Shown one piece after another: positions 20,603-21,241 of a DNA stretch of 64,000 bases. The position numbers and the translations under genes were made by a program. Positions within the stretch are counted from its first letter, which is position 1, and every line of letters starts with the position of its first letter. The notes below the pieces were generated by a model, which worked only from the letters and a program-made list of their open reading frames with translations, was not told the origin of the DNA and did no database searches. The DNA is from Escherichia coli (lineage in GTDB: Bacteria > Pseudomonadota > Gammaproteobacteria > Enterobacterales > Enterobacteriaceae), in the NCBI RefSeq assembly GCF_044324785.1, contig NZ_CP172127.1; one strand, given 5' to 3'.

Positions 20603-21019
20603 TCAAACCATCACCAGCGATAACTCTTTGCCAAGCGCCTTAGCCGCAAGCTGGACGGCGTCGATTTTTGTCGCATGGTGCAAGTTAAATAAGCGAGTAA
20701 TCTCCTGTTTAGGTTTGCCAATTCGTCTGGCTAACTCTTGCTGAGTGATTTCTGACTGTAAAAAAGCATTTAACAGCAATACCTTAGAGGCGACGCTCAA
20801 AGGTACTTCAATAAAGTGATCGTGACTATTTAATGGCGAAGGTAAAGGGATAAGCTCGTTATCTTCAAAATAAAAATCAAATGCGGTCAGTAAAGCATCT
20901 TTTGCCGCTTCCATCGCTTCAGCGACAGTTTCGCCCTGCGTCAACGCTTCAGGGATATCCACAAAAGAAACCATATAACCGCCTTCCGGCGCGGGTGTAA
21001 GAGTGACGGGATAACGCAT
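20603..21019 (-). CDS. hicB: HicB antitoxin
   Basis: MRYPVTLTPAPEGGYMVSFVDIPEALTQGE… with C-terminal DNA-binding region. The ORF track begins 7 codons upstream at 21040; either start is possible. Confidence 0.8.
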   Translation of the reverse strand: MRYPVTLTPAPEGGYMVSFVDIPEALTQGETVAEAMEAAKDALLTAFDFYFEDNELIPLPSPLNSHDHFIEVPLSVASKVLLLNAFLQSEITQQELARRIGKPKQEITRLFNLHHATKIDAVQLAAKALGKELSLVMV

Positions 21020-21064
21020 AATTTCGACTGTCTCTCGCATGTCATTAACCTTTCTAATTGGCGA

Positions 21065-21241
21065 TTAACTCAAACCGAGTTGTTTCAGGATTGCTTTACG
21101 CAATGGTTCTTTAATCTCATCGCAGGGGTGACGCGGCATGACACTGCGCCTCCCATGAAACCTGAGTTTCAAATGGTTGCTGCCATTCGCTACATCGACG
21201 CCCTGAGATTCGAGCCAACGTCTGAACTCGCTTTGTTTCAC
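21065..21241 (-). CDS. hicA: HicA mRNA interferase toxin, 58 aa, GTG start
   Basis: Hand translation of the minus strand: (GTG)KQSEFRRWLESQGVDVANGSNHLKLRFHGRRSVMPRHPCDEIKEPLRKAILKQLGLS*. Absent from the ORF track because it is under 60 aa and lacks an ATG start. Confidence 0.8.
   Translation of the reverse strand: MKQSEFRRWLESQGVDVANGSNHLKLRFHGRRSVMPRHPCDEIKEPLRKAILKQLGLS

Follow-up and report, generated by a model that had tools for sequence, protein, structure and literature searches.

Conserved GTG start of hicA and two candidate starts of hicB in the chromosomal hicAB toxin-antitoxin operon of Escherichia coli

Background

The hicAB operon of Escherichia coli K-12 (hicA b4532 and hicB b1438, formerly yncN and ydcQ) codes for a toxin and its antitoxin. 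K-12 HicA, which is identical in sequence to the protein described below, cleaves mRNA independently of the ribosome and arrests growth, and His23 of EcHicA has been presented in a review as important for RNase activity and named as the catalytic residue. According to published work, the balance of toxin to antitoxin in E. coli hicAB is largely determined by a pair of promoters. P1, dependent on CRP and Sxy, gives both HicA and HicB; P2, which HicB represses by itself and an excess of HicA derepresses, leads to HicB without HicA. The leader of the P2 transcript begins 1 base upstream of the hicA ribosome-binding site (PMC11878559). In the related hicAB system of IncI2 plasmids, a "noncanonical intrinsic terminator" raises the toxin-to-antitoxin ratio (Lin et al. 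2025, PMC11878559).

The start of K-12 hicB has a history of its own: GenBank placed it 21 nt further downstream in its 2014 version than in that of 2006 (Nakahigashi et al. 2016, PMC4909307, supplementary table), and tetracycline initiation profiling (TetRP) also proposed the +21 nt start (PMC4909307). In the three TetRP samples the +21 site scored 75, 19 and 14, respectively, and the old start 0, 0 and 115 (PMC4909307); these values look like very few reads, and the HicAB data from the ribosome profiling of Li et al. 2014 have been called low-confidence by another analysis. E. coli genes have moreover been reported to contain functional start-stops that attenuate the host ORF (Meydan et al., bioRxiv 10.1101/520783). 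What is said here of hicAB with regard to RNase activity, its two promoters and initiation profiling is taken from the literature.

In this study, we determined the gene boundaries, the protein identities and the conservation of start codons and their contexts for the hicAB locus in a stretch of 64,000 nt of E. coli DNA (the window; contig NZ_CP172127.1), together with its counterparts in other genomes.

Results

The minus strand of the window from 20603 to 21241 is exactly the stretch bounded by the stop of hicB and the start of hicA. The locus is a chromosomal type II toxin-antitoxin operon, hicAB, of E. coli, and there is nothing new in its GTG or in its two ATGs. HicA matched Pfam HicA_toxin PF07927 (E=3e-7, 30.9 bits, cut-off 27) with residues 5-57 on model positions 3-58. 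HicB matched HicB_lk_antitox PF15919 (E=8.7e-8, 32.8 bits, cut-off 27), model positions 1-65 falling on residues 10-74 of the 145-aa form, and its C-terminus matched HTH_3 PF01381 (E=1.9e-7, 31.4 bits, cut-off 23) at residues 95-141 of the same form. The 58-aa HicA is 100% identical, from its first residue, to PDB 6HPB_A (E=1.9e-36), and HicB is 100% identical to 6U0I_A (E=4.5e-91) and 6HPB_B (E=1.2e-86). With the Pfam matches above curated cut-offs, and with both proteins identical in alignment to the solved E. coli chains, as the initial annotation had suggested checking, its naming of the locus as hicAB is borne out well beyond what chance would give, and all of its coordinates proved correct to the base. 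An NCBIfam scan of HicA and HicB assigned no family and was uninformative on the N-termini.

A query of about 1 kb (1001 bases, window 20450-21450) was compared by megablast with 5426 complete E. coli genomes, and 5416 of them matched at 95-100% identity, with hicA, hicB and ydcR annotated beneath the match. In the closest genome (RefSeq) the order is rlhA, yncJ, hicA (177 bases), hicB (417 bases) and ydcR, and the window agrees with it gene by gene, the operon having its usual position between yncJ/rlhA (ydcP) and ydcR. The toxin gene comes first: hicA stops at 21065 and is followed in frame by hicB, also on the minus strand, after a gap of 24 nt or 45 nt depending on whether ATG 21040 or ATG 21019 is used.

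Coverage of the query was below 80% in 1199 of the 5416 matched genomes, and part of the E. coli population has a decaying hicAB locus (L082:1501-2056 and L083:710-864). Five low-coverage genomes were listed, and hicA was not among their annotated features; in the one of these low-coverage genomes that was examined, hicB is a pseudogene without its N-terminus. Another sampled genome, in which the match is 22 bp shorter than the query, carries a frameshifted hicA beside an intact hicB. On three Citrobacter-type contigs (L085, L086 and L087) hicA had been left uncalled by the gene caller of the collection, and L085 and L086 have intact GTG-started hicA ORFs of 58 codons. Automated annotation of metagenomes evidently calls too few of the toxin genes that start with GTG.

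The hicA coding sequence (21065..21241, minus strand) runs from GTG 21241-21239 to TAA 21067-21065 and codes for a 58-aa mRNA interferase toxin. RefSeq gives hicA the same boundaries and a length of 177 bases, which makes 58 codons and a stop, and residue 23 of the translation is His (MKQSEFRRWLESQGVDVANGSNH...). The GTG start at 21241 and the length of 58 aa, both proposed by the initial annotation, thus agree with RefSeq, as well as with the orthologous loci described below. It went too far in holding that hand translation alone reveals hicA, since a mechanical ORF list that allows GTG reports the gene and RefSeq annotates it.

For comparison we used 80 loci encoding HicB relatives, one genome per species, and counted hicA start codons in the 62 loci where the alignment of E. 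coli HicA reaches residue 1. At the position of the hicA GTG, 55/62 loci have GTG and 7/62 have ATG, in a set reaching from Enterobacterales as far as Marinomonas, Cellvibrio and Thiocystis, and the start codon of the orthologues always lies 4-5 nt after GGAGG or GGAGGAG. In the window, the Shine-Dalgarno sequence GGAGG (21246..21250, minus strand) ends 4 nt before the GTG, and its duplex with the 16S 3' end, at -11.1 kcal/mol, is the strongest of the operon. The prevalence of GTG and the constant spacing from GGAGG or GGAGGAG indicate that the combination of a weak start codon with a strong Shine-Dalgarno sequence is the ancestral hicA design. Judging from its sequence, HicA would be a 58-aa ribosome-independent mRNA interferase translated from a GUG 4 nt past a strong GGAGG. 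In some relatives (L029, L034, L035 and L038) an in-frame ATG directly precedes the conserved hicA GTG (GGAGGAATG GTG AAG), and many other relatives have GTG GTG at this place, where the first codon is ambiguous by one residue.

An out-of-frame ATG-TGA (21238..21243, minus strand) shares one base with the hicA GTG. In minus-strand order, GGAGG (21250-21246) is followed by cg, ATG (21243-21241) and TGA (21240-21238); the ATG adjacent to the GTG, which the initial annotation described as meeting an immediate stop, is thus out of frame with the TGA directly next to it. Among the orthologous loci only those of Escherichia have ATG 21243; elsewhere the GTG is preceded by variable bases, gca or gcg in Citrobacter and agtg, aatg, ggca or ggaa in other relatives.

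Both hicB starts named in the initial annotation, 21040 and 21019, are in-frame ATGs and give 145 aa and 138 aa, respectively. The accepted coding sequence (20603..21019, minus strand) runs from ATG 21019 to TGA 20605-20603 and codes for a 138-aa antitoxin and repressor, with a partial RNase-H-like domain at the N-terminus and an HTH at the C-terminus. The start at 21019 is settled in reference annotation: hicB of RefSeq has 138 aa and the Swiss-Prot entry HICB_ECOLI holds the 138-aa form, the 145-aa form being a TrEMBL entry. Both forms are found in the PDB, 6U0I with the 145-aa construct and 6HPB/6HPC with the 138-aa construct, and the gene callers of the metagenome collections favour 145 aa.

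The codon homologous to ATG 21019 is ATG in 69/72 loci. In 20 of these loci an in-frame stop lies 3-18 nt upstream of the conserved hicB ATG, so that no alternative hicB start is available there; Salmonella, closely related at 77-78% protein identity, has such a stop in addition to the 20, a TGA at -9. In the protein alignment M8-R9-Y10-P11 of the 145-aa HicB are nearly invariant, and residues 3-7 are not conserved. Taken together, the conservation of this ATG, the upstream stops and the position of the Pfam match, in which model position 1 corresponds to residue 10, strongly support 21019 as the start of the family. Two of the three TetRP samples also favour 21019, while the third contradicts them with the upstream ATG. 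In the Shine-Dalgarno duplex model ATG 21040 scored -3.4 kcal/mol with a spacing of 7 nt and ATG 21019 scored -3.0 kcal/mol with a spacing of 13 nt, against an operon background of -2.7 +/- 3.1 kcal/mol, and neither these energies nor local accessibility discriminated between the two starts. As neither has a convincing Shine-Dalgarno sequence, the starts cannot be ranked from sequence alone. A promoter-like match (ATGACA, 16-nt spacer, AATTAT; 21018-21045, minus strand) overlaps both hicB ATGs, and a transcript from it would begin within hicB; this site is probably due to chance, as 3 sites were found and 1.5 +/- 1.4 expected.

The spacer between hicA and hicB (21041..21064, minus strand) is A/T-rich and carries an SD-like AAGG (21052-21049) 8 nt before ATG 21040, and neither a hairpin nor, in a terminator scan, a terminator-like site was found in it. 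From ATG 21040, the K-12 start of 2006 and the start of the PDB 6U0I construct, HicB would begin with an optional extension of seven codons, MRETVEI (21020..21040, minus strand). Among the loci compared, this ATG occurs only in a clade of Escherichia, Citrobacter and Raoultella, where it is invariant; in the window and in two Citrobacter-type contigs of the clade the locus lies between rlhA and ydcR. Eight distinct clade sequences share an invariant RAGG, an 8-nt spacer and ATG.GAG, followed by 14 nt that are essentially unconserved, and in all of them the extension has a length of seven codons. Codon 2 of the extension alternates between CGA and AGA, both Arg, and codon 3 keeps its first base only. 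The combination of RAGG and ATG.GAG is what a real initiation region before an unconstrained peptide would look like; an RNA-level GAGAG signal fits equally, given that only the first base of codon 3 is kept. In an AF2 model of the 145-aa HicB, of moderate quality with a mean pLDDT of 68.5, residues 1-8 fall below 50 and the first strand starts from residue 13, weakly suggesting that the extension is disordered. AUG 21040 was gained in the Escherichia, Citrobacter and Raoultella clade and, if used at all, may add a disordered 7-residue extension to some HicB molecules.

Relatives outside this clade have a different spacer. A G/C-rich hairpin (ACCAGCCC-TTCG-GGGCTGGT) directly follows the hicA stop in Salmonella, Serratia, Photorhabdus, Xenorhabdus, Pantoea and others, and in the hairpin-bearing loci (L008, L084 and L012-L070) it lies about 15-45 nt upstream of the hicB ATG. 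The hairpin consensus has 7 pairs, 4 of them with compensatory changes, and is present in most relatives. The Escherichia and Citrobacter clade lacks it and has RAGG and the extra ATG in the A/T-rich spacer instead; by the role published for the hairpin of IncI2 plasmids, we infer that this hairpin-less clade should make relatively more antitoxin. In hairpin-bearing relatives (L024-L077) hicB has a single SD-like motif (GGAG, GAGG or AAAG), placed 14-15 nt ahead of its ATG; from about -18 to -10 these loci have the motif followed by a conserved TTCAC, and the distance to the start is unusually long.

Upstream of hicA, a candidate extended -10 of P2, TGaTATACT (21260..21268, minus strand), would start transcription near A21252, which is one base before GGGAGG and so matches the published description of P2 (PMC11878559), and Citrobacter-type loci keep TATAAT or TATACT equally far from the Shine-Dalgarno sequence. 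P2 was not reported by a consensus promoter scan. A perfect 7+7 inverted repeat, GTAAACA-ctaa-TGTTTAC (21274..21291, minus strand), lies over the -35 and spacer region of P2 and is a plausible candidate for the HicB operator (hicO). As these -10 and operator positions in the window were derived from secondary descriptions, their coordinates are putative.

Discussion

We consider it very probable that the locus is E. coli hicAB with hicA translated from its GTG, hicB translated chiefly from 21019 and a toxin-to-antitoxin ratio that is mostly a matter of transcription. In our reading, 21019 is the main hicB start, its AUG being conserved across the family. The initial annotation had held that the choice of start codon matters for the ratio; this is reasonable, but the effect would be secondary, two promoters having been documented as the main control.

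The alternatives bear on each of the two genes. It is unlikely, though arguable, that Escherichia HicB is made mainly or substantially from AUG 21040 as a 145-aa protein, the ancestral 21019 being now an internal codon. The upstream ATG is invariant in its clade, stands at a good 8-nt spacing behind a conserved RAGG where the ancestral hairpin has been lost, has in the duplex model a better SD-like spacing than 21019 (7 nt vs 13 nt), would be the first AUG reached by ribosomes that finish hicA, whose stop lies 24 nt upstream, and was chosen by Prodigal-type gene callers and by the 6U0I depositors. On the other hand, its duplex energy of -3.4 kcal/mol is within background, curated annotations have abandoned it, the extension is unconserved in sequence and predicted to be disordered, and a signal in the RNA would explain the conserved GAG behind the ATG just as well. 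The initiation profiling points both ways, sample 3 of TetRP giving 115 at the upstream ATG and 14 at the downstream one, while samples 1 and 2 gave zero here and 75 and 19 at the +21 site (PMC4909307). At the hicA start, it is highly improbable that the AUG-UGA is a functional decoy that takes initiating ribosomes and lowers translation of the toxin. The AUG-UGA is present and shares a strong Shine-Dalgarno sequence with the GUG, and host-attenuating start-stops of E. coli genes offer a precedent. However, only 2 nt separate GGAGG from ATG 21243, a spacing shorter than usual for initiation; the AUG is restricted to Escherichia, the three bases before the GTG are free to vary in relatives, and a search of published profiling for hicA initiation data found none. 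We regard the ATG-TGA as most likely incidental.

That the GTG start is itself an artefact, a sequencing error having placed a false stop after a true ATG, is a caveat of the initial annotation, and nothing beyond that caveat speaks for it. We reject it as having virtually no chance of being true: the 18-nt context with ATGTGA, GGAGGCGATGTGAAACAA, is identical in six independent Escherichia assemblies, which excludes a sequencing error, the locus is found at 95-100% identity in more than 4200 complete genomes, and the homologous codon is GTG in most orthologues, across many genera.

With 21019 as the main hicB start, a minor 145-aa isoform of HicB carrying the disordered extension is conceivable at best and rather improbable. 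We similarly doubt, without dismissing it, that Escherichia and Citrobacter make two HicB isoforms, one of 138 aa from the ancestral AUG and one of 145 aa from the clade AUG with its SD-like motif, the choice depending on context. The choice would then lie between reinitiation after hicA on P1 transcripts and de novo initiation on P2 transcripts and, if true, would tie the hicB start to the toxin-to-antitoxin balance.

Past annotation hygiene the locus is of little importance, as the operon, the GTG, both hicB starts and the two-promoter control were already known. Our survey adds that the hicA design with a weak codon and a strong Shine-Dalgarno sequence is ancestral, that the downstream ATG of hicB is the start of the family, and that the upstream ATG is a clade-specific gain which coincides with the loss of the intergenic hairpin. 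For groups that express or crystallise HicB, two constructs are in circulation, of 138 and 145 aa.

Three described systems frame these results. Like the start-stops of yecJ and hslR (Meydan et al., bioRxiv 10.1101/520783), the one in the window has an ATG directly followed by a stop and an SD-like sequence upstream; unlike them, it is not internal to the gene but has a base in common with the primary start codon, has an SD spacing of 2 nt and shows no conservation beyond Escherichia. HicA^T B of IncI2 plasmids (PMC11878559) shares with the window the toxin-first order, the strong GGAGG of hicA and an autoregulated promoter of P2 type, and its hairpin is resembled by that of the chromosomal relatives in Salmonella, Serratia, Photorhabdus, Pantoea and others; the hicAB locus of the window has no such hairpin. 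The operon of E. coli K-12 is by far the nearest: the proteins encoded in the window are identical to the solved K-12 chains, and the toxin-first order, the flanking rlhA, yncJ and ydcR and the contexts of the start codons are all shared, with no functional difference between the two loci. The best match of the window among the complete genomes of the collection reaches no more than 99.4% identity across 1001 bases, and the window thus represents the K-12 type of hicAB in another strain.
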